From IMG/VR virus record IMGVR_UViG_3300032257_000007: DNA of 64,000 bases; one strand, 5' to 3'. The position numbers and the translations under genes are program-made. Shown one piece after another: positions 3,918-52,277 of the stretch (position 1 is the first letter of the stretch; each line of letters opens with the position of its first letter). The notes beneath the pieces are model-generated. The model searched no databases. It worked only from the letters and a program-made list of their open reading frames with translations, and was not told where the DNA came from. This DNA is from an uncultured virus (IMG/VR IMGVR_UViG_3300032257_000007). Taxonomy: Duplodnaviria; Heunggongvirae; Uroviricota; Caudoviricetes.

Positions 3918-5402
3918 ATGGCTGTAACTGCAGATGGAATGTTTTCTGTATCATACACAGGAACCAGAATAGGTAATTTAGCAACAGGTTTTCATATGGT
4001 TATCAATGGCCCAAAAGGTAGTCTTGGCAATAGAAAAGAAGTTAATATAAGCATAGATGGAGTCAGTGCCAAGCTTGGATCTTCAAAAGCAGTTGTAAAG
4101 GAAATAGGGAAGAGCTACAATAGAACTTTTGAAGGTGACTCTTCTGTTGTTGTAGATCCTATATTTTCTTTATTTGAGAGACTTGTTATAATCCAAACTC
4201 AAGCTAGAGCGTTCCAATCCACATCTCTTGGTAGCGGAACACATGGAAAAGTGGTGGTTATTACTGCGCAAGACATGATGACACTATATAAAGACAAACT
4301 AGCAAAGGGCGACATAGAAGGGTTCATTCAGGGGTTAATAGGCGATGATAGCGGTATTGTTATCAACTATGATAGTGTTGGAGAATCTCCAATTATAAAA
4401 GCGCTTAAGTTAAATTCGAGTACCGCTATCTTCCGAAAGTCCAGCATGAATGCAGCTCGGTCTCTTTTTCAAAAGACAAACATATTAAGTGTTGGTGACA
4501 TCTTTCAGCAGTTTATATCTCCGTTAGGATTGGAACTGTACTGGATGAGAGACAATGTGTACAACTTAGAACCACCCAGAATACTATCAGACCCAAAGCC
4601 AGTAGCAACAATAAAAAAGACAGAAATAATAGAGCTCAACTCTGTTGCCGATCCTTACAATGTTCCAGATATTGTAATTCCAAGAATGCACTTTCAAAAT
4701 GCTCTAGGAACAAGTGCATCTAATACTATCGTCATCCAATCTCTTATTGCTGGTGTAATAAATTCTCAGGCTCCAGGTAGATCTGGTGTCGGTGGACAAA
4801 ACTTAAAAGTGTCTACATATGATGTTCCTCCATTTTTATACGATGCTCATGCTATGGGACAGAGACAATCTTTGAATGCTAAAAATAAAGAGCTTGGCAC
4901 AACTTTAGAAACCAATCCTGAATTTGAAGCTTCTTTGGCGGGGTTTTATTCTTCTCATGCAAGAAAGTCTGAGTTATACAAATTAAATACTGGTAGATGT
5001 GTTACTATTCTTAATCCAAAGCTCAATCAACCTTATGCATGGTATAATATTGATGGAGAAGACTGTTTTGTTTCTAATATCAGACATGAGATATCGAGAA
5101 CAAGGGCAGTTACTATTCTAGAGATAGCAGGCAAAAACACAGGGCATCTCACTGATCCAAGTGGTGGGTCTGTACAATATAGTCCAGCTGAAGATGCAGA
5201 GGTTAATGATCTAGGTAGAAAAGGTGAAGACATCCTTAAATCAGCTGCAGGAAGAAAAGAAAGAGCTGACCCTAAGTGGAAAAAACCTGAAGGTCTAAAA
5301 GATGCAATCAAAGATGGTAAAACGCAACTGAAGACACAATTCGGTGATGCTGATGCAGATAAGGCAAAGATAGATTCTGTAAATACTATGATGAGTGAGT
5401 AG
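3918..5402 (+). CDS. Putative baseplate hub (gp27/gpD-like) protein
   Basis: 494 aa between tape measure and gp25-like gene; C-terminal GRCVTILNPKL...FVSNIRHEIS...TILEI resembles hub-type beta-barrels. Confidence 0.45.
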   Translation: MAVTADGMFSVSYTGTRIGNLATGFHMVINGPKGSLGNRKEVNISIDGVSAKLGSSKAVVKEIGKSYNRTFEGDSSVVVDPIFSLFERLVIIQTQARAFQSTSLGSGTHGKVVVITAQDMMTLYKDKLAKGDIEGFIQGLIGDDSGIVINYDSVGESPIIKALKLNSSTAIFRKSSMNAARSLFQKTNILSVGDIFQQFISPLGLELYWMRDNVYNLEPPRILSDPKPVATIKKTEIIELNSVADPYNVPDIVIPRMHFQNALGTSASNTIVIQSLIAGVINSQAPGRSGVGGQNLKVSTYDVPPFLYDAHAMGQRQSLNAKNKELGTTLETNPEFEASLAGFYSSHARKSELYKLNTGRCVTILNPKLNQPYAWYNIDGEDCFVSNIRHEISRTRAVTILEIAGKNTGHLTDPSGGSVQYSPAEDAEVNDLGRKGEDILKSAAGRKERADPKWKKPEGLKDAIKDGKTQLKTQFGDADADKAKIDSVNTMMSE

Positions 5403-6021
5403 CAATATGTATGAAACTGATATAAAGTCACAAGTAGATTGGGCTGTACGAAAATATGGTGGAAATCTTCCGTCTTCTGTGGCTAAATCTCAAGCTGAAA
5501 AATTAGCAAGAGATGCTATGAAATCATACGACCCATCAAAGGGTAATGTAAAGACATATTTAAATAAAAGATTGCAGAAGCTAAGTCGTATAGCATACAA
5601 GGCCTCTACCCCAGTTAATATACCAGAGTCAAGACTTATGTCTAGAGCCAAGATAAGAGACTTTATAGATGAGTATAAGGATACTTACGGGGTAACTCCT
5701 AACCACTCAGTAATATCAAAACATACTAAAGTTCCTCTTGTTGATGCAAAAAGTTTCATGATGGAGTCTGCGGCAATTAATAGTGAATCTGCTTTCGACA
5801 ACATAGCTTCTGGGAATGCCCAGTCAAACCACAATATGGTTTTGCAATCTCTGCCGAATGAGCTTCTTGATATAGGGAATGACATATACTCTAAAGGTAT
5901 GACCGAAAAAGATATTATAAAGAAGCATAAGATAGGAAGAACTACCTATTTTGCAAAAAAGAAAAAGATAGACGGTTTCCTTAAAGGAAATTCTGGTCTA
6001 GCGAACATTCAATATAACTAG
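5395..6021 (+). CDS. Sigma70-family-like transcription factor (start may be ATG 5407)
   Basis: Region-2-like AMKSYDPSKGNVKTYL followed by PVNIPE; C-terminal HTH-like GMTEKDIIKKHKIGRTTY. Confidence 0.65.
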   Translation: MSSNMYETDIKSQVDWAVRKYGGNLPSSVAKSQAEKLARDAMKSYDPSKGNVKTYLNKRLQKLSRIAYKASTPVNIPESRLMSRAKIRDFIDEYKDTYGVTPNHSVISKHTKVPLVDAKSFMMESAAINSESAFDNIASGNAQSNHNMVLQSLPNELLDIGNDIYSKGMTEKDIIKKHKIGRTTYFAKKKKIDGFLKGNSGLANIQYN

Positions 6022-9618: not shown

Positions 9619-10536
9619 ATGATTACACAAGGAAAAGCAGCTGAAGCATATGCAGCACTAAATTCCGATGGGATTAAAGCTGGATTAGTAGGTACAGTAA
9701 ACCTAGTTATCCATAACGAGAGCGGAGAAGCTGTCGGAGTTCAGGAACTATATCACGGAACTGATGTAGATGATATGATGTTGAACCAATCACTAGACAC
9801 AGCAAAGATTATTTTCTCTAAGCTTGCGGCAGGTATGGTAGATCACAAGATCGCTAAAATTGCTTTCGGTAATGCTGGACATAATTTCCTTAACCCTAAG
9901 CAGGCTGTTGATGCAGTTGCTACTGATATTGGGCTTAAATCTGCTGAGCATATTGTTACTTCTTTAGATAGCGTTGCTGTTACAGATCACTACCTATATA
10001 CTGACACAAATGCTGTAACACACAGAATGGTATATGTTGAGAAAGACATTCTTCCTGAACACATTACTTATGGTGCTATGGGTAATCAATTTGTTGTTCG
10101 TGTTCCTATCAGTTATGATGAGTTCAATATGAGAGTTGGTGGAGCTACTACTACAGATGTTGGTTATGACACTTCTCTTATCTCTTACACAATGGTAAAT
10201 CCTAATGATGGTACTCTGATCCGTTTTGGTGATGTTGATGCTGCAGGTGCACCTCTTCTTGAAGCTAGTGAAGTTTATAGTTGGGATGACGCTGGAACTA
10301 CTCGTTATGCATTCTTGAATGGTATTAATGGTTCAGGTGTTATCGATACTGTAAATGGTGGTGACAGACCTCAAGAGATCTCTGAGATTCTTCTTTGTGC
10401 TGATATTACTGGTGACGGTACTGTTGAAGCTCCATACCAAAAACTTGCTTCTTCAAGAATGACAAGTGGTCTTCTTGCTTTCCCTGAAGGCTTTACTTTT
10501 ACTTACGAATGGTCACTTAGCTGGAACTTCGTTTAA
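9619..10536 (+). CDS. Putative baseplate/tail-fibre attachment protein
   Basis: IAKIAFGNAG...ISEILL...FTYEW pattern typical of tail-fibre N-terminal or baseplate domains; GCT/GGT/GTT-biased codons. Confidence 0.5.
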   Translation: MITQGKAAEAYAALNSDGIKAGLVGTVNLVIHNESGEAVGVQELYHGTDVDDMMLNQSLDTAKIIFSKLAAGMVDHKIAKIAFGNAGHNFLNPKQAVDAVATDIGLKSAEHIVTSLDSVAVTDHYLYTDTNAVTHRMVYVEKDILPEHITYGAMGNQFVVRVPISYDEFNMRVGGATTTDVGYDTSLISYTMVNPNDGTLIRFGDVDAAGAPLLEASEVYSWDDAGTTRYAFLNGINGSGVIDTVNGGDRPQEISEILLCADITGDGTVEAPYQKLASSRMTSGLLAFPEGFTFTYEWSLSWNFV

Positions 10537-14471: not shown

Positions 14472-15010
14472 TGGTAGGATATAGCACAGAATCAATAAAG
14501 GCTGTAGGAGCCGTTTTAGATAGAGTTGGAGCAGATGCATTCATGGCAAGACAAAAGGTCACAGCTAGCTTTTATAAGATCATGATGGGTGATTTTGACA
14601 CTATCATAACTCACAAGAAAGAAATAGCTTCTCTTTTGATGATAATGATGATTATGCACATAAGAAAAGATGTTAAGCATGAGGCTAAAACTGCAGTTAA
14701 AATAGCAGAAGAAGTGCTAATACCTATGATGAATAGAGCATTATATGAGCAAGCTTCTGTCTTTAGTGCGTTATCTAGACCTAACGATATCCCTATGCTT
14801 CAAATAATGTCTATGGACGTTATAGGGAAAGGGCACCTTGAAAAAGTAATATCAATGATCATGATTCTTACAAAAACTGACTTTCAGGACCTTCTTATGG
14901 ATGACTCTAAAATGGAGTATTACATCAGAGACAAAAGAATGTTCAGAGACAAGACGTTTATATCATTAGAGGATGTAGTAGATGCAAGCAACAATTACAA
15001 CGCTCAATAG
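14471..15010 (+). CDS. Hypothetical helical Met-rich protein
   Basis: 179 aa; GTG start coupled to the upstream TAG. Confidence 0.5.
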   Translation: MVGYSTESIKAVGAVLDRVGADAFMARQKVTASFYKIMMGDFDTIITHKKEIASLLMIMMIMHIRKDVKHEAKTAVKIAEEVLIPMMNRALYEQASVFSALSRPNDIPMLQIMSMDVIGKGHLEKVISMIMILTKTDFQDLLMDDSKMEYYIRDKRMFRDKTFISLEDVVDASNNYNAQ

Positions 15011-15431
15011 GTTTAACTACAATGATGTCGTATCTCTTGTGTGGAGAGTTATGAATGAAGGCGTAGGAGAAGGCAACTACAAAAGAGTAGAAGCTGAGGA
15101 ATACGTCAAAAAGAATTCTGACAGAGTGAGAGTTTTAGAAGTTGAAAATGAAGTCATGGGGATGTATGCTTATTATGATAATCCAAATGTATTTACTCTT
15201 AGCTTTTTTGCTCTACACCCATTGGTTAGATCAAAGAGAGATGGATACAAGTTATTTTTCGATCTAAAGGAAAAACTTTCTGGAAAACCTGTTATAATTC
15301 CTGTATATAACCACAATACAATTATGTCAGATATAGTCAAAAAAAGAGGTGTTTTCGTAGGGCGATTTAAGTCCGAAGGCGACAAACTTTTAGATTATTA
15401 CTCTGCATCATTTGGTGGAGAGGAATGGTAG
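14982..15431 (+). CDS. GNAT-fold acetyltransferase-like protein
   Basis: 149 aa; VLEVENEVMGM...LSFFALHPLVRSKRDGYKLF resembles GNAT motif A, followed by VYNHN. Confidence 0.55.
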   Translation: MQATITTLNRFNYNDVVSLVWRVMNEGVGEGNYKRVEAEEYVKKNSDRVRVLEVENEVMGMYAYYDNPNVFTLSFFALHPLVRSKRDGYKLFFDLKEKLSGKPVIIPVYNHNTIMSDIVKKRGVFVGRFKSEGDKLLDYYSASFGGEEW

Positions 15432-15432
15432 A

Positions 15433-17181
15433 ATGACAGGAACAGCTGGAATTATTGTAATCAACGACATGTTGCCAAGGGACATACAGTTTCCTTATGA
15501 CAAGCCTATTGATTCTAAATTATTTAAAACTAAAATGAAGCTTTTTGCTAAAAAGTATCCAGAGAAATTTGCAAGTACGATTAGTCATATAGCAAATATT
15601 GGCGAAAAGATGTCTTTCTATCTAGGAGCTAATGTTGGCCCGAAAGACCTAAAGACTGATTCGGCTAAGAATAAGAGGCTAATGGCATCTTTAGAGAAGA
15701 AGCTTGATAAAGCAAAAACAATAGACGAAAAAAGAAACATTCTTCTTGGCGGTCTTCAGAAAGCTGTAGATTTGACCTCTAAGATCAAGCTTGATGATAA
15801 TGAGATGGCCCAGCAAGTAAAATCTGGTTCAAGAGGAAAACCTGTTCAGTTTGCAAGAATGGCAGTTGGTCCAGTATATGCCGTTGATATGAACCAGCTT
15901 CCTAAAGCCAATTTAATCAAAAACAACTTTACGAATGGCCTTAACTCTCAAGAATACTTCAACGTGTCTAGTCAAGGACGTTTCTCATCAGTGCAAGCTG
16001 CGAATGCTACATCTGAACCAGGCGCACTCGGGAAAGTCCTTGTTGCTAATGCCGATGATCAAACTATCACTATAGACGACTGCAGAACATCAAATGGTTC
16101 TTTCATGAACACAAAAGATAGACATATTATAGGTAGATACGAAGCAGGTAAAAACAAGCTTATTGACGATACTTATTTTAGGGTTATCAGTAAAAGCTCT
16201 AAAAAGATAAAGGTAAGAAGTCCTCTTACTTGTCAGGCTCAAAAGGGAGTGTGTTCAAAGTGCTATGGCCTTAAGCCTGACGGAAAACTTCCTTCTATTG
16301 GTGACAATGTTGGTATTATTGCTGCACAGACAATAGGTGAGGTTTTAACTCAGATGACACTATCTACAAAACACTCTACAATCGGTAAGAACGATGACAG
16401 TAGTCTAAGAGGTGTTGATGGATTTAAAGCTATTGCTAACTCTCCTGCCAGCTTCTCTGGGTCTTCTTCTGTTGCGGCTACTTCTGGAATAGTCACTAAA
16501 ATCCATAAGGCTCCTCAAGGTGGACATGAAGTGTATGTTGGAAGCAAAAGATATTTTGTGCCACCATCGGCTACAGTAAAAGTGAAAATAGGACAATCTG
16601 TTTATGCTGGTGATGCCTTATCTAGTGGCGTTGTAACTCCTAAGCAAGTTCTTGAAACACGAGGTATAGGTGAAGCAAGAGAGCACGAAAGCTCTATGCT
16701 ACATAAGCTATTTCTTGATTCAACAGGAAGAGATCTTCAGAAGAAACACTTTGATATTGTTGCTAGAGGGCACCTGTCTCTTGGTCAAGATAAACAAGGT
16801 GATGTTGACAGTCATTCAAGTATGATGGATAAGTATCCTAGAACTTCTATGCTTGAAAGCGTTTCCACTGGTATCAAAGGTAAATATCTTGGAGAAGACG
16901 TTGGTTCTTTATCTAAAGGTCTTGAAATAGATGATAGAGTATATGGTAAGCTCAAAGACTGGAATGTTCATAGAGTAAAAACTACAAAAGAAAGACCTTC
17001 CGTAAAGCCTATCTTTAAAGCTCTTGAGCAACGACCTACATTTGGTGGAAACTTATTCTCTAAGATGAATTACAGAAATCTATCCAAAGCAATCAAAGAA
17101 GAAATTCTTTACAAAAAGAGCCCAAGCAAGGTAAATGACTTCTCTTCTGATAGAGCTAAGCATACTGCAGGGTTTCTATAG
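15433..17181 (+). CDS. rpoC: DNA-directed RNA polymerase beta' subunit, C-terminal half (split subunit)
   Basis: SGSRG; NFTNGLNSQEYF; bridge-helix-like GRFSSVQAANATSEPGALGKVL; Zn site DDC...RSPLTC...GVCSKCYG; trigger loop AAQTIGEVLTQMTLSTKH; KHFDIVAR; no NADFDGD; ORF 15412..17181, likely ATG 15433. Confidence 0.88.
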   Translation: MTGTAGIIVINDMLPRDIQFPYDKPIDSKLFKTKMKLFAKKYPEKFASTISHIANIGEKMSFYLGANVGPKDLKTDSAKNKRLMASLEKKLDKAKTIDEKRNILLGGLQKAVDLTSKIKLDDNEMAQQVKSGSRGKPVQFARMAVGPVYAVDMNQLPKANLIKNNFTNGLNSQEYFNVSSQGRFSSVQAANATSEPGALGKVLVANADDQTITIDDCRTSNGSFMNTKDRHIIGRYEAGKNKLIDDTYFRVISKSSKKIKVRSPLTCQAQKGVCSKCYGLKPDGKLPSIGDNVGIIAAQTIGEVLTQMTLSTKHSTIGKNDDSSLRGVDGFKAIANSPASFSGSSSVAATSGIVTKIHKAPQGGHEVYVGSKRYFVPPSATVKVKIGQSVYAGDALSSGVVTPKQVLETRGIGEAREHESSMLHKLFLDSTGRDLQKKHFDIVARGHLSLGQDKQGDVDSHSSMMDKYPRTSMLESVSTGIKGKYLGEDVGSLSKGLEIDDRVYGKLKDWNVHRVKTTKERPSVKPIFKALEQRPTFGGNLFSKMNYRNLSKAIKEEILYKKSPSKVNDFSSDRAKHTAGFL

Positions 17182-17218: not shown

Positions 17219-17944
17219 GTGGCTAAATTATATTTTAACAACCCTATTATGAAGCATTTAAAAGAGGTGACTATTCTTAACTTCTTTTCAGAAAAAGATG
17301 GGACATCTATTTTTGTTAGGGATACAAGACCTGACATATACAGAGATCAGAAGTTTGTATATGGGGATTTGGATTTATATCAAAAAGACAACGATTATTA
17401 CATAGACATTAGACCTATGTCTGCAATGTCAGGAGATGCCTTTGGCGTATATGTTGGAGAAGGATACGACTTCGAGGTTAAAGCACCTAAAGACCCTATT
17501 TTTATAGTAAGACAAAAGAGTACAGATATGGCTCTAGGGATGATGCCTGATATGCACCAGGGTGTAGATATTACTGAAACGGCTTTAGGCATGTTTCATA
17601 TAGGTACTACAATCACCTTTAAAAGAGAAGGGATACAGATACGAGATGAGCTTACGGATAAAGGGTGGGTAAGACGCTCTGGCCCAAGTGACAAAGATTT
17701 TGGTATAATGACAATTGAAGAAGCCTTTGCTGGCAAATTGTCTGAAGAGAAAAAGAATCAGGACGCTTTAGCTGCTGATGTACTTGAGACTATTGAACGC
17801 ATTAGAGCTGCAAAAGAAAAGGGTGAAATCAACCCTGTTCTTGCTGATGAGTTAATAGCTTCTAAAATAGATACAAATGCAGATAATATCTACATGTTCT
17901 TGGCGAAGGACATAAAAGATCTTAAGAAACGCAAAATTTTATAA
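17219..17944 (+). CDS. Hypothetical protein
   Basis: 241 aa; GGAG RBS; TATAAT at 17184-17189. Confidence 0.55.
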   Translation: MAKLYFNNPIMKHLKEVTILNFFSEKDGTSIFVRDTRPDIYRDQKFVYGDLDLYQKDNDYYIDIRPMSAMSGDAFGVYVGEGYDFEVKAPKDPIFIVRQKSTDMALGMMPDMHQGVDITETALGMFHIGTTITFKREGIQIRDELTDKGWVRRSGPSDKDFGIMTIEEAFAGKLSEEKKNQDALAADVLETIERIRAAKEKGEINPVLADELIASKIDTNADNIYMFLAKDIKDLKKRKIL

Positions 17945-17961: not shown

Positions 17962-20178
17962 ATGAGCGGTTTAGCTACTATTCAAAAAAAAGAAGATCTT
18001 CCAAAGAGTGCAGGTGAAGGTTCTCTTGAAAATAATGTAAAGCAACTTATTACCGATGAAGCATATTCTCAATTGTCTGGTAAGTTCCCTAAACTTATCC
18101 CTATGATTGTTGGAGTAAACATTGTAGAGATGATAAATGAAAAAACTGCTGTTGGTGCAGCTGTTATTGGAATTGAAGACAAAAAGATGATGATTCCAGT
18201 TATCTATACAAATGGACTAGTGGACGCTACTACTTTCATTTATAGTGAAGATGAAGACACGCTTCTTGCTCTTACTAAGAAGGTAGTAAGTATGATTGTC
18301 TCTAGTAGCCCAGTGCTTACTGGTACTGTACCTAAAGAGGGCGAAAAGAGAACATTTGATGGTGGGGATATCCGAAAACTATTCGTTCCTCCTAAAACTT
18401 ATAGCCCAAAAGTTGCATCAGAAGGCGGACTTCTTTTTGCAGTTCTTGAACAAAGCCCTTTGTTAAAAGAAGCTATGACTGAGAAGCTTAAAGATGCTGA
18501 ATATGGAAAAGCTTTTTCTGAAGCATACGGTGAAGAGGCAGTTGAGTTTATTACATCAAATATGATGGAAAAGACTGCTTGTGAGATGGCATGTGACAAA
18601 ACACCAGTTGAAGTTTCATTTTCAAAAAATGAAATCATGCAAGGGGATTGGCTAAACAAAGAAGCTGCAATGCAAGAGTTTGCAGTAAATGGCTTTGCTA
18701 TTTCTCATGGTGCTACACTTCAAACAAGATCTCTCAGGAAAGTTGCATCTGTCGAGACGAAACTAAAAGAGATCATTGGATCTGATACTATTCAGAGCAT
18801 TGACACAAACCATTCGGGTGTTTACACGGTTTATTCTCTTTCAGACTTGAAACCTATTGAAATTGTAGTCTCTAGAGAGGTTGGTTCTGATATGAGAACT
18901 GAACCTAAAGTGATCAGCTCTTGTAGAATCACAGACTCTATGAAAAATGATGGAAACCCAATTATTGGAACTCAAGTAAATGCGTCAGAAGCTAAAACGC
19001 TAACTGAATTCTCTCCAGAAAAAATTATGAATAAAGAAAGCGTAACTTTAGTGTTCTTTAAAGGCGGGGAAGTGTTTGGTAGTAAAAGGTTTTATGGAGA
19101 CTCAGACAATGTAACAAAAGGTTTAGGCAACACTACAATCTCTTTGGCGTTCTCATCTTCAGTAAAATCTATTATTATTGAAAAAGGGAGTGATGCTACC
19201 GCTACAGTCATGGGTGCAACTCTACACATTGGATCTAATAATGTTAAAGTTCTTGACAAGCAAGAGAAAGACCATGAGAATGTTTTAAGAATGAGAGACT
19301 TGCATAACGACGAACTTTCTACAAACATGGTCAAGCTTGCATTTGATGGAGTAGAATATATTCACGACCAGGCTGTTTATAGCAAGGGTCAAATTGTCAA
19401 TAAGCTACTTGCAGATGGATTTGATAAGCATAGTGTTTATGATATTGTAAAAACAGCTGCTGCAGAAGGATCTGCTGAGCTAGTAGCCGTAAGCGCTAAG
19501 CTGGACATGCTTACAAATATGGTTATGAATCTTGCTGGTCAGGTTCAGCAAAACACTATGATGCAACAACAAAGCCAAGACCAGGCAGCAATGCAAGCCG
19601 ATCAAATTGCTCAAGAAGAAGCTGCACTTGAAGAAGAAATGGCAGCTGCTCAAGGTGGAGAACAAGCTGCTCCTGAACAAGGCATGGCTATGCAAGACCC
19701 TCATAATGGTATGCAAACTCCAGAACAGCAAGCAGCTTCTGAGCAAGAAATGCAAGCTCAAGCTGACATTGATAAACAAATGTTAGGTCAAGAAGCAGCT
19801 CAGGCCCCTGGCCAGGAAGAAGCTCAACAAAATCCTGATGGCATGAACACTTCTATTGATCCTCAAATCCTTCAAGCTCTATCTGATATAAAAGATAGTA
19901 GAATAATGGATGTAGGAGTCATATCTATGATTGCAGCATCAAATGACATTCAAGATGTTATTGCTCAATATAAAGGGGATATTTTATCTGGAGCTTCTGC
20001 TTTAGGTAGAATTCTCTTAAATGCTATGACTAAGAAAGATGAACTTATTCTGGATGTTGGTGAGCCTAAATATAAACAGCTTACCAATAGTTTAAAGACG
20101 GTCTTCACAAAAGTGAGCGACTTGTATGTAGATATTATGAGGTTAGAGCTTGAGTCTGACGGAAAAATGGCCAGTTAG
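17962..20178 (+). CDS. Putative internal head protein with K-x-A-S motifs and a Q/E/A-rich region
   Basis: 738 aa; PKVAS, EKTAC, NKEAA, RKVAS, VKTAA, GKMAS; low-complexity segment at about 19540-19850. Confidence 0.5.
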   Translation: MSGLATIQKKEDLPKSAGEGSLENNVKQLITDEAYSQLSGKFPKLIPMIVGVNIVEMINEKTAVGAAVIGIEDKKMMIPVIYTNGLVDATTFIYSEDEDTLLALTKKVVSMIVSSSPVLTGTVPKEGEKRTFDGGDIRKLFVPPKTYSPKVASEGGLLFAVLEQSPLLKEAMTEKLKDAEYGKAFSEAYGEEAVEFITSNMMEKTACEMACDKTPVEVSFSKNEIMQGDWLNKEAAMQEFAVNGFAISHGATLQTRSLRKVASVETKLKEIIGSDTIQSIDTNHSGVYTVYSLSDLKPIEIVVSREVGSDMRTEPKVISSCRITDSMKNDGNPIIGTQVNASEAKTLTEFSPEKIMNKESVTLVFFKGGEVFGSKRFYGDSDNVTKGLGNTTISLAFSSSVKSIIIEKGSDATATVMGATLHIGSNNVKVLDKQEKDHENVLRMRDLHNDELSTNMVKLAFDGVEYIHDQAVYSKGQIVNKLLADGFDKHSVYDIVKTAAAEGSAELVAVSAKLDMLTNMVMNLAGQVQQNTMMQQQSQDQAAMQADQIAQEEAALEEEMAAAQGGEQAAPEQGMAMQDPHNGMQTPEQQAASEQEMQAQADIDKQMLGQEAAQAPGQEEAQQNPDGMNTSIDPQILQALSDIKDSRIMDVGVISMIAASNDIQDVIAQYKGDILSGASALGRILLNAMTKKDELILDVGEPKYKQLTNSLKTVFTKVSDLYVDIMRLELESDGKMAS

Positions 20179-20911
20179 TCGTTTCGACGATAACTTAGAG
20201 ATTTTAAAAGATTTTGAGAAAGATAAAGATTGTATAAGTGCCAAAAAAGTACTTGATGGAGATTATTCAAAGACAAACAAGAATATTCTTCATGCAGTCA
20301 AAATTCATCAGAGTGATATGCAAAGAGATATTATTGAGGCTCTACTGCTAGCAGAGGATTGCGATACTACAGAAGCTTCTGAATTATCTGGTGTAGGGAC
20401 TGACGTTCTCGAGATGTATGCGAAACTTTTCTTTAATATCCAAGACACTTTCATATCTAAAATAGACCTCTTAGACTATATAGAAACAGGCGTAAACACT
20501 TATTCTAAAAATGGGAACGATGATCCAGACTTGGGATCATTTCTTCTTAAGAGATGGGTCATCTCATTAGGTAAAGAGTTTGTTGTGTGGAGATATAAAC
20601 TTAAGCCTATTGCTTATGCTCCTGCAAGCTTGTATTCAACTATTATGAAAGAAGCTTTCTTTTATCACAAAGAGAAATCCATGGGTAATGAGCAGATCTC
20701 TCTAAGTGAATATCTGAGGTCAACAAGTACTCTATTGAGCAGCGTTAAAGGCAGTACCGCCATCAAGGAAGTTAGCGAAGAAGATGCTGGCTTGGACATC
20801 ATGGATCATTTAGGTATAATTATAGAAGATAAATCAGCACCTATGATTACGCTTGATGAAATAAAAGATGGTAGTTTTGTAAATAACGCCACACAACAGG
20901 AGACTACGTAA
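20150..20911 (+). CDS. Hypothetical protein
   Basis: 253 aa ORF; start codon uncertain. Confidence 0.5.
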   Translation: MSLTEKWPVSRFDDNLEILKDFEKDKDCISAKKVLDGDYSKTNKNILHAVKIHQSDMQRDIIEALLLAEDCDTTEASELSGVGTDVLEMYAKLFFNIQDTFISKIDLLDYIETGVNTYSKNGNDDPDLGSFLLKRWVISLGKEFVVWRYKLKPIAYAPASLYSTIMKEAFFYHKEKSMGNEQISLSEYLRSTSTLLSSVKGSTAIKEVSEEDAGLDIMDHLGIIIEDKSAPMITLDEIKDGSFVNNATQQETT

Positions 20912-41161: not shown

Positions 41162-41184
41162 CTTTGCGCCTTTATTATTTTTTC

Positions 41185-41200
41185 TGCTATAATTATAGCA
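41185..41200. promoter_or_regulatory. Perfect palindrome TGCTATAATTATAGCA, i.e. overlapping divergent extended -10 promoters
   Basis: Reads TGCTATAATT on both strands, between divergent starts at 41161 (-) and 41228 (+). Confidence 0.75.
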
Positions 41201-41227
41201 AAAATAAGACTCTAAAAGGTTTTTACC

Positions 41228-48216: not shown

Positions 48217-48921
48217 ATGCTTTTCAAAGAAACAGAGTTCTCAGCAAATGGCATTCAAGTAGGTTCGACTAATCATTGCTTTGATAAGTGCGACTTCCTA
48301 AAGAAAGAAGCCTCTGCTGAATCTATTAAATATTTTAATGAGCTGAAGGCTAAGCCTGATCACTTATACTTTTTAGTTGTTGCTATGACATCTGGTGAAT
48401 GGTGGTCTTCAAATAGAAATGGAGATTACTTCAAAGAGGAAGACTTGAAAAAGTATTACAATATCTTTGAAGATTCTGGTGTATTCTGGAACCATGACAA
48501 CAAAGATCCTGAGAAGAGCATCGGCAATGTTCTTAAGGCGTTCTATAATGATGACATGCACCGTATTGAAATCGTAATTGAGGTTCCTACTGAAAAGGGA
48601 AGATACCTTGCTGATTACATTAGAGATGGAAAACCTATCTCTGTATCTATGGGTCTTAACACTCCAAGTGAGTCTTGTAGTATCTGTGGCCATGTAACAA
48701 AAGGCTCTTATGAAAACAGATGTGAACACCTAAAGTTCATGATGAATACAACTCTACATGATGGACGTAAAGTATACGCTATCAGTGGAACACCTCTTAA
48801 GCTATTTGATATCTCTTTTGTGTTTAGACCTGCTGACAAGACAGCTTATGCTATGCTTACAAAGACAGCTTCACATAAAGAGCTTGGACTATCTTCTATA
48901 AAGGATGAAATCAATGACTAG
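48217..48921 (+). CDS. Prohead (capsid maturation) protease, HK97/assemblin-type fold, with a Zn-finger-like insert
   Basis: SNRNGDYF, WNHD (His), SIGNV, SVSMG (Ser), CSICGH...CEHL, FDISFVFRPAD. Confidence 0.75.
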   Translation: MLFKETEFSANGIQVGSTNHCFDKCDFLKKEASAESIKYFNELKAKPDHLYFLVVAMTSGEWWSSNRNGDYFKEEDLKKYYNIFEDSGVFWNHDNKDPEKSIGNVLKAFYNDDMHRIEIVIEVPTEKGRYLADYIRDGKPISVSMGLNTPSESCSICGHVTKGSYENRCEHLKFMMNTTLHDGRKVYAISGTPLKLFDISFVFRPADKTAYAMLTKTASHKELGLSSIKDEIND

Positions 48922-50405: not shown

Positions 50406-52277
50406 TTGATCTTTAGCGACTATGATCTAACTAGAAGATATAAAAAACACCCATTATTATCACAATTCAGTAGTTCTCTGCCATCAAACATTAAAGAATT
50501 GTTTGAGTGGATGGAGTTTATTGTTCATAACAACCCTATTGCATCTGCAGGTATTAAGAAACTTTCTGAAACTCCTGTAACTTCATTTAAATATTTAGCT
50601 GCTGATGATCCTAATGAGGGGTCTATCAGTGAAAACGATAGCTGGAAGTCTGTATTAGAAGATTCTCTAAATATGAAGGCTAACCTTCTTAACGTCTCTT
50701 ATAACACTCTTTTATATGGAAACTGCTTTGTGTCTGTGTACTCTCCTATTATTAGATTTTTGAGATGTGACATATGTAATGAAGAGATCCAGCTTCGTCA
50801 CTCAAAGAAATTGAAAGTTTTTATCTCAAAGAAAGATGATGCTGGCTTCGGTGAGCACTCTGAATTTGAAGATGATGGTGACTTTTCAAAACAAGACATA
50901 TCTACACCTACAAAAGACATTACAGAGAAGTACAAGAAGCTTAACACTAAGAAGACTCCTGTCCACTTTTCTTGTCACTGTAACTCATGTAAGAAGATAA
51001 CTTCTCATGCTGCAAGAGATATGCGTATTAAATCTAAAGATGATATGAATCTTATCGTTTGGGACCCTAACTCAATCAAGCTTGTTGATAATCAAATCAC
51101 AGGGGCATCAGAGTTCTATTATGAGATCCCAGGCAATGTGTATCAGACTGTTAAGGATAATGACCCTTTCACTCTATCTACAATGCCTATCGGTATGATT
51201 GAAGCAGCTATCACGAAGAAGCTTTTTAAGTTCTCCGAGGGTCACATATATCATTCCAAGAGAGAGACAATCAGTGGAGTATCTACTTCATGGGGAATGC
51301 CAGCACTATCTTCTGCTATCCCTGCATTCTTGACTCTTATGATTCTTAGAAAAGCAAATGAGAAGATTGCATCTGACTACATGGTTCCTTTAAGAACCAT
51401 ATTCCCTATGAATCAAGCAAGTGGAAGTGACATGTATAACTTCATGGGCGGGTCTGACTTTGTTGGTAAGATTAACACTATGCTCGACAAATGGAAGCTT
51501 GACCCTTCTGCTGTTCAGACAACTCCATTCCCTATTGGAACAGAGACTATCCTTGGAGATGGTAAACTTCTCAGCCTTAACCAAGAGATCGATCAACTTG
51601 AGTCAAATATTGCCAATTCGCTTGGTATCCCTATCGAGTTCATCAAGGGTGGTTTGAGCTACTCTTCACAAGGTAGTTCATTAAGACTTCTAGAGAATCA
51701 GCTGGCTAGACTTTCTTCTAACCTTGAAGATGTTCTTGGTTTCGTGGTAGATAGAGTCTCACTTACTTTAGATAAAGAGCCTATCAAAGTGAAAATGGTT
51801 CCATTTAAAATCGTTGATGACTTGCAGGAGAAAGCTGCTATTGTTCAGCTTGCTGCTTCTGGTCAAGGAATGATAAGTACGTCTACTATGCTTGAGATGT
51901 TCAATATGGATGCTGCTTCTGAGAATAAGAGAATGCTTGCTGAACAGAAAACTGGTGTTAAAAACAACATCGATCTTCAGAATTATCAGCAAGAAGTTGC
52001 TACAAGTATTGAAGAGCGTGCTAAAAATGCTGCTCAGATGAATAATAGTAACTTCCAGACTCTTAACCAGCAGTCATTAATGGCAGAGGCTCAACAGTAC
52101 GTTGACCAGCTAATGCAAATGGATGATGGATCTAGAAAATCAGCTCTCGATGAAATGTCTAAGACAAATTATATCTTATATGGTGTTGTTAGAGCTCTAT
52201 TGGAAATGAATAAAGGCAAGCAAGACTATGCTAACCAACAAGAGGGCGAAGCTGCTGCAGGTGGAGAAGAAGCCTAA
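50406..52277 (+). CDS. Portal protein (putative)
   Basis: 623 aa; LLYGNCFV, IVWDPNSIKL, HIYHSK...WGMPAL, IANSLGIPIEFIKGG, ISTSTMLEMF follow the order of portal motifs; near the protease. Confidence 0.7.
   Translation: MIFSDYDLTRRYKKHPLLSQFSSSLPSNIKELFEWMEFIVHNNPIASAGIKKLSETPVTSFKYLAADDPNEGSISENDSWKSVLEDSLNMKANLLNVSYNTLLYGNCFVSVYSPIIRFLRCDICNEEIQLRHSKKLKVFISKKDDAGFGEHSEFEDDGDFSKQDISTPTKDITEKYKKLNTKKTPVHFSCHCNSCKKITSHAARDMRIKSKDDMNLIVWDPNSIKLVDNQITGASEFYYEIPGNVYQTVKDNDPFTLSTMPIGMIEAAITKKLFKFSEGHIYHSKRETISGVSTSWGMPALSSAIPAFLTLMILRKANEKIASDYMVPLRTIFPMNQASGSDMYNFMGGSDFVGKINTMLDKWKLDPSAVQTTPFPIGTETILGDGKLLSLNQEIDQLESNIANSLGIPIEFIKGGLSYSSQGSSLRLLENQLARLSSNLEDVLGFVVDRVSLTLDKEPIKVKMVPFKIVDDLQEKAAIVQLAASGQGMISTSTMLEMFNMDAASENKRMLAEQKTGVKNNIDLQNYQQEVATSIEERAKNAAQMNNSNFQTLNQQSLMAEAQQYVDQLMQMDDGSRKSALDEMSKTNYILYGVVRALLEMNKGKQDYANQQEGEAAAGGEEA

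Follow-up and report, generated by a model that had tools for sequence, protein, structure and literature searches.

The open reading frame (ORF) at positions 15,433 to 17,181 of the 64-kb stretch of viral DNA analysed here (the window) encodes a genuine C-terminal half of the RNA polymerase (RNAP) beta' subunit (beta'C), with the bridge helix, Zn-II site, trigger-loop histidine and fold of double-psi-barrel-type RNAPs, and is one more ordinary member of its RNAP family. That family, large and apparently not yet described, is a variant among the phage RNAPs that lack alpha, and it has a cultured representative in Salmonella phage Arash. In the reading that we favour and consider likely, the gene encodes the smaller of the two chains of an RNAP without alpha that, together with a sigma factor, would be made late, packaged, injected and used to read the early genes, while host RNAP would read the late genes. 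The wider proposal, to which we give an even chance, is that these enzymes form a third, very widespread alpha-less phage RNAP lineage that is minimal (a beta-beta' chain of ~2,000 aa, either intact or split at one point, together with a sigma70 homologue of ~210-240 aa), sigma-dependent and virion-packaged, consists of 2-3 polypeptides, shows remodelling of the bridge helix and trigger loop as well as an altered rifampicin pocket, lacks the N-terminal Zn domain, and initiates at a promoter of its own, which in Arash would be GGTATAAG-n5/6-GTA.

The gene begins at an ATG preceded by GGAGGA, 2 bases past the stop codon of the ORF before it, and the GC content of the 16-18 kb bin resembles that of the flanking sequence. 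Its product gives the sole RNAP Pfam match among the 69 window ORFs scanned (RNA_pol_Rpb1_5, E 2.9e-18), and among PDB sequences it aligns best to C. difficile beta' 556-1058 (E 6e-28). The AlphaFold model (pLDDT 87) retrieves bacterial beta' chains as best Foldseek matches (TMq 0.68-0.73). The chain starts near E. coli-equivalent residue 570 and does not contain DxDGD; in agreement with the sequence-only reading, which had noted the absence of the catalytic NADFDGD region, a six-frame scan of the 64-kb window found no DxDGD, and queries with beta and the N-terminal half of beta' (beta'N) gave no match within it. We found 127 homologues of the beta'C protein, dozens of which share its length (~580-630 aa).

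Table 1. Features of the window, with position, strand and supporting detail.
Feature	Position	Strand	Detail
Sigma70-like factor, regions 2-4, Arash gp10 homologue	5395..6021	+	208 aa from GTG, or 204 aa from ATG 5407
GNAT-like ORF adjoining beta'C upstream, kept there in close clade	14982..15431	+	E 0.015; G001 orthologue PF13673 E 3.4e-4
Beta' C-terminal subunit of phage RNAP	15433..17181	+	582 aa, stop codon at 17181; Pfam, PDB match, predicted fold
Bridge helix (residues 182-203)	15976..16041	+	R780, T790, G794 equivalents retained; Y795 to A, R798 to K, S793 to P
Zn-II site C217, C267, C274, C277 (E. coli 814/888/895/898)	16081..16263	+	Alignment
Trigger loop TQMTLSTKH (residues 306-314)	16348..16374	+	Q929, H936 equivalents retained; R933 to S, F935 to K
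Homologue of Arash virion protein gp218, conserved downstream neighbour	17962..20178	+	738 aa; E 3e-10
Homologue of Arash gp219, conserved neighbour	20150..20911	+	253 aa; sequence match
Head maturation protease-like gene, Arash gp222 homologue, marking the morphogenesis module	48217..48921	+	Sequence match
Portal protein, Arash gp204 homologue	50406..52277	+	Sequence match
Eight intergenic TGnTATAAT sites (probable late promoters), 29-43 nt before start codons	6026, 9581, 34266, 41185, 45187, 48185, 49675	+	8 of 15 sites, with the next row
	41200	-	

The bridge helix, the four cysteines of the Zn site and the trigger loop lie where they had been read from the sequence (Table 1; E. coli numbering was transferred through Salmonella RpoC in the alignment). 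Across the 47 lineage rows of the alignment, R425, D460, D462, D464, R780, G794 and H936 are invariant and Q929 is kept in 46. In the bridge helix R798 is replaced by K in all 47 rows, S793 by P in 39 and Y795 by A in 33, and the F935 position holds K in 12/12 two-chain rows versus F in 32 of the 35 others. Y795, R798 and F935 are invariant in all bacterial rows and in the listed mReC rows, and are altered in the phage lineage. The remodelling of both elements that had been remarked upon is real and shared across the whole phage clade; judged from the alignment, the altered motifs are traits of this clade and do not point to decay. The seven lineage rows displayed have lost the Zn-binding domain at the beta' N terminus, which the rows for mReC, TM30 and YerA41 retain. 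The chain is cut between E. coli equivalents 552 and ~570, immediately past the DPBB domain, and by these comparisons it is from its single-chain relatives, and not from any host rpoC, that the split sets the two-chain form apart.

The missing part of the enzyme is found as a fusion of beta to beta'N. Four of the 24 cultured-phage records that matched the beta'C protein did so over at least 80% of its length, namely Vibrio phages D181, D148 and D69 and Salmonella phage Arash, at ~30% identity, and Arash gp206 (1,525 aa) comprises beta followed by beta'N, its C terminus coming after ADYDGD. Searching IMG/VR with the single beta'C sequence gave 16 candidates, none of them related, and searching with an alignment gave three related records (G001-G003; 50-65% identity). 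Each of these carries one frame of 1,437-1,462 aa with PF00562, PF00623 and DxDGD, and PF00562 matches once per genome in all three, indicating a single RNAP set. G003 is collinear with the window end to end, and its fusion gene (70.3-74.7 kb) lies ~11 kb beyond the match to the window's right edge. With the G003 fusion as query we retrieved P0126 (1,445 aa), which has the beta motif GDKxxRxGNK at 765 and SDYDGD at 1352-1357. Its longest contig measures 134,261 bp, the same as that of the window beta'C protein, and its identities to the relatives (73/67/49/44%) run parallel to those of window beta'C (74/64/52/49%). On the strength of equal contig size, identity pattern and synteny, P0126 is very probably the window virus's own fusion, placed by synteny ~11 kb past the window.

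The DxDGD-bearing beta'N and beta partner for which the sequence-only reading had proposed a search is therefore present in 3/3 close relatives, with the window virus's own copy very probably P0126. A genome devoid of partners, the counter-case which that reading had named, is not what we found, and its split phage RNAP gains support; its term 'stand-alone' suits the gene but not the enzyme. At the rifampicin-pocket positions 513, 516, 526, 529 and 531 P0126 differs from the bacterial residues, so the putative phage RNAP is likely insensitive to rifampicin. Alpha was not found in the lineage genomes searched (PF01193 0/5, PF01000 0/5; controls 14/14). A homing endonuclease gene interrupts the fusion gene in D181 and D148, not in D69, and intein or homing-endonuclease domains are common in lineage RNAP genes according to precomputed Pfam annotation (P0241, P0242, P0095, P0100, P0154 and others).

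Contrary to the claim that no further RNAP subunit is recognisable in the window, a sigma70-like ORF lies ahead of the beta'C gene (Table 1). It is matched by Arash gp10, annotated as a sigma factor, at E 1e-6, and has orthologues in G001 and G003 and, with the window ORF as query, in G002. The protein alone has no match to a sigma Pfam domain, which would explain why it was overlooked; likewise Pfam Sigma70_r2 was found in 0/3 close records, and the close-clade sigma surfaced only through gp10. In the Atlas, viral Sigma70_r2/r3 clusters are listed first for it (score 0.96). A profile of 85 homologues, compared with regions 2-4 of SigA and RpoS, matches SigA at E 1e-19 over positions 57-232 of 236, and the predicted model (pLDDT 90) retrieves sigma factors in all of the best 50 Foldseek rows (best E 2.9e-4). 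By profile search the gene occurs in exactly one copy in 10/10 near-complete lineage genomes and in 0/5 mReC-type records, just one of which is complete; in the close clade only one sigma-like gene was found per genome. Two region-2.3 tryptophans of sigma70 are missing from the phage sigma in the alignment. Its product is a probable promoter-recognition subunit of the phage RNAP.

A search for longer proteins was headed by single chains of ~2,000-2,100 aa that unite beta, beta'N and beta'C. Scanning IMG/VR with a single-chain query confirmed at least 374 stretches; 76 of the 80 examined hold the three parts in one frame, a share that is not a frequency because the query itself was single-chain. 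The beta' tree comprised 62 of 102 aligned rows and 749 columns (IQ-TREE PMSF quick search, SH-aLRT as the only support, rooted on giant-virus Rpb1), without rows for phiKZ/AR9 or Campylobacterota RpoC. Two-chain rows joined beta'N to beta'C of the same record or of proteins on equal-sized contigs, rows P0299 and P0307 were dropped as they had no motif match, and the mReC rows came from five contigs (L300, L308, L311, L317, L325) paired with entries in supplement 4 of PMC7481178 through sample id and length.

In this tree the single-chain and two-chain phage forms make one clade (100), the 14 bacterial rows are monophyletic without it (99) and mReC is separate (98). All phage groups join at SH-aLRT 93, an unstarred node prone to long-branch effects, and Arash with D181, D148 and D69 is the sister group of the window clade (96). 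The two-chain forms stand together in the beta' tree (95), but L093 falls apart from them in the beta tree, which makes their monophyly unstable. The latter (FastTree) also sets the phage clade apart from mReC and Bacteria, does not keep the two-chain forms together, and places YerA41/Carin-5 beta as sister to the phage clade. Since the clade branches outside Bacteria, an old, lineage-wide enzyme is indicated, not a recent host capture. The description 'clearly bacterial-like, independently acquired' has to be qualified accordingly. A recently captured bacterial rpoC, considered as a separate candidate, was rejected for lack of nesting within Bacteria (99, in a tree without Campylobacterota RpoC). 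Compared by eye, 0/80 lineage loci are present in the mReC list in the accessible part of PMC7481178. In the literature within reach, which left out most subscription journals and bioRxiv supplements, we found no description of a fused beta-beta' lineage.

The beta'C gene had been placed inside the morphogenesis module, and portal and head protease genes do lie nearby. The window also holds tail-fibre-like genes, and from ~53 kb its minus strand carries replication genes. PMC7824862 mentions phage acetyltransferases that act on host RNAP; a link to the GNAT-like ORF is speculation. Downstream, a 241-aa ORF of no known family (17219-17944, +) adjoins beta'C in every close locus that reaches that far; at the counterpart position Arash has the SNF2 helicase gp217, plentiful in particles. 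The 738-aa neighbour, for which the Atlas gave no usable match, is possibly co-packaged with the RNAP, by analogy with gp218. A 305-aa ORF (9619-10536, +) is among the best-conserved close-clade neighbours (45-54%); it has no family match and is not an Arash-type capsid protein. Between 41792 and 47688 (+), three genes of 132-145 aa and two of ~680 aa match the same G001/G002 genes as paralogous blocks, probably duplicated tail-fibre modules.

Possible promoters of two kinds were found. TGnTATAAT occurs 15 times in the window versus 4.8 expected, a count reached by 0/100 shuffles, and eight of these sites are intergenic (Table 1). We take TGnTATAAT to be the extended -10 type of Campylobacterota RpoD, in line with the occurrence of a 47%-identical beta'C of this clade, next to a GNAT-like gene, on a 2,154-bp contig (L016) of Sulfurimonas sp. 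SAG-AH-194-C20; this contig from a single-cell genome points to Sulfurimonas as the host, or to infection of the cell. The accessible part of PMC12641261 does not document a Campylobacterota extended -10 promoter. Whole-genome counts of TGnTATAAT in G001-G003 are not above shuffles; similarly placed sites are present, one of them upstream of the G001 fusion gene. At 41162-41227 a divergent gene pair has a short common spacer with back-to-back TGCTATAAT, and the same arrangement recurs in G001 (51039/51054 and 6307/6314).

In Arash, TATAAG-n(4-7)-GTA has 29 sites where 2.6 are expected; five are copies of a single repeat, and every site lies on the non-structural strand. The structural genes carry TAAAAT instead. 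GGTATAAG-n-GTA (n5/6) is a candidate phage promoter in this genome. Upstream regions of D181 contain TATAAG in 18/66 cases versus 1.8, and TAAAAT in 11/33 versus 1.4; the enrichment is confined to these regions, the whole-genome motif count of 16 being within the shuffle range (maximum 25). Neither the window nor G001-G003 shows the Arash promoter motif. G003 has six sites of GGTATATATATA(TG) versus 0 expected (e.g. 79273, 85082, 159443, 161872), several of them intergenic before starts, and GGTATATATATA is a candidate phage-specific (phage-sigma) promoter. It was seen in G003 alone, and no early-promoter motif shared by the close clade was found.

Evidence on packaging comes from the published proteomics of Arash particles (PMC10585845). 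There gp206 is the most detected protein and gp216 the fifth, with 3516 spectra for gp206, 1210 for gp216 and 467 for gp10. Calculated from that table, spectra per residue amount to 2.3 for gp206, 2.0 for gp216, 2.0 for gp10 and 1.9 for gp218, and to 4.3 for the capsid protein, bearing in mind that spectral counts saturate and that Arash is only 30% identical to window beta'C. The second Arash sigma, gp196, is missing from the particle protein table; the preparation comprised 116 proteins including metabolic enzymes, and the authors allow for co-purification. Because the fusion, beta'C and gp10 show similar spectra per residue, the virion packaging that the sequence-only reading had proposed receives support by way of this 30%-identical relative, and the RNAP is probably carried inside the virus particle by the phage family.

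From the sequences, motif conservation, co-occurrence, tree position and the Arash proteomics, we infer complex formation, activity, injection and a division of promoters. Mechanistically, the large chain (P0126) would give both double-psi barrels and the Mg-binding DxDGD, while the small chain would contribute the secondary channel, bridge helix, Zn-II site, trigger loop and jaw, and the sigma70-like protein would complete the holoenzyme. All three subunits would be produced late, enter the head and be injected, and would then transcribe early genes from phage-specific promoters. The structural genes would probably be transcribed by host RNAP at the extended -10 promoters.

An unlikely alternative, though one to be weighed, is an active phage RNAP with its sigma that stays out of the virion and serves middle or late genes after infection, the phage sigma itself reading TGnTATAAT. 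The single RNAP set per genome and the one sigma-like gene of the close clade would fit such an enzyme, as would the similarity of the Arash/D181 motif nGnTATAAG to TGnTATAAT and the possible contaminants in the Arash proteomics (PMC10585845). However, the RNAP and sigma genes sit in the late module, and because the G001 fusion gene is preceded by TGnTATAAT, a purely late enzyme would need itself for its own synthesis; neither of the two region-2.3 tryptophans of sigma70 is kept in the phage factor, and the three subunits show near-equal spectra per residue, with gp206 ranking top. We think it improbable that the packaged chains have a non-canonical role (DNA-pulling pre-early transcription, priming or a structural core) while sigma redirects host RNAP: the deviations at Y795, R798 and F935, where bacterial and listed mReC rows are invariant, and the deleted Zn-binding domain would suit this, yet the catalytic residues are all invariant in 47/47 rows and sigma accompanies RNAP in every near-complete genome tested. 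A lone captured host rpoC fragment, decaying or acting as a decoy, has next to nothing in its favour beyond the lack of a partner inside the window, against the 127 homologues (dozens of ~580-630 aa), the partner in relatives and very probably in the window genome too, a clade outside Bacteria, and GC at 16-18 kb like its surroundings.

If the packaged, sigma-using enzyme that we prefer is real, no bacterial-type RNAP that uses sigma would be simpler, and the idea can be tested directly in a cultured phage. The enzyme would show how bacterial-type holoenzyme assembly and initiation proceed without alpha, omega and the beta' Zn domain, and how catalysis copes when bridge-helix and trigger-loop residues that are invariant elsewhere are lost. 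As a further marker it would serve for a large group of phages of 160-200 kb (at least 374 IMG/VR stretches), whose two-chain form the mReC filters would miss, and it could provide an orthogonal transcription system.

Among known systems, Arash (gp206/gp216/gp10, OQ632216.1; PMC10585845), D181, D148 and D69 share with the window virus the fusion and a separate beta'C (30% over 95%), and the Arash group also shares the gp10-type sigma, the xKH trigger loop, the gp218/gp219 neighbours and the portal and protease homologues. In Arash ~5 kb separates the beta-beta'N and beta'C genes, and gp196 is a further sigma, whereas in the window virus the distance is ~60 kb and one sigma was found. The accessible part of PMC10585845 annotates the Arash genes as beta and beta' only, and does not remark on fusion, split or lineage.

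The phiKZ/AR9 enzymes (PMC7598289) resemble the window's in lacking alpha, in a beta' split after the DPBB domain, reported there for cyanobacteria too, and in having a virion-packaged version. They differ in forming two RNAP sets, in a beta that is also split and in the lack of a recognisable sigma; the window lineage has one set, with beta intact and fused to beta'N, and this fused core pairs with a recognisable sigma70 homologue. AR9 matches only partner residues 752-876 (9%) and no phiKZ record was among the cultured-phage matches of the beta'C or partner search, consistent with the independence from phiKZ/AR9 that had been suggested.

Like the window's enzyme, mReC (Weinheimer and Aylward 2020; PMC7481178) has an RNAP alignable to bacterial beta/beta' and placed outside Bacteria. 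It has a separate beta, an intact beta' of at least 800 aa with NADxDGD, a canonical bridge helix, the N-terminal Zn domain and a Gp23-type capsid, whereas the window lineage has a 582-aa chain and a GSDYDGD partner fused to beta, forms a separate clade and has the sigma that mReC lacks. The Gp23-type capsid (PF07068) was found in 0/4 lineage genomes and in the one mReC control (1/1), and lineage relatives carry an Arash gp226-type capsid.

YerA41, Carin-5, RHph_TM30 and RP13 are cultured phages with bacterial-like beta/beta', split in beta' in YerA41 and RP13; beta is not fused in YerA41 and Carin-5, and all four fall outside the window clade in the beta' tree. The crAss-like phages deliver their RNAP in the virion, and in these phages, YonO and P23-45 one polypeptide contains both barrels, as do the ~2,000-aa relatives of the window RNAP. 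PMC7481178 describes the RNAPs of crAss-like phages, YonO and P23-45 as not alignable to COG0085/0086; the window clade, in contrast, retains beta/beta' domains that Pfam recognises clearly, along with a partner of sigma70 type.
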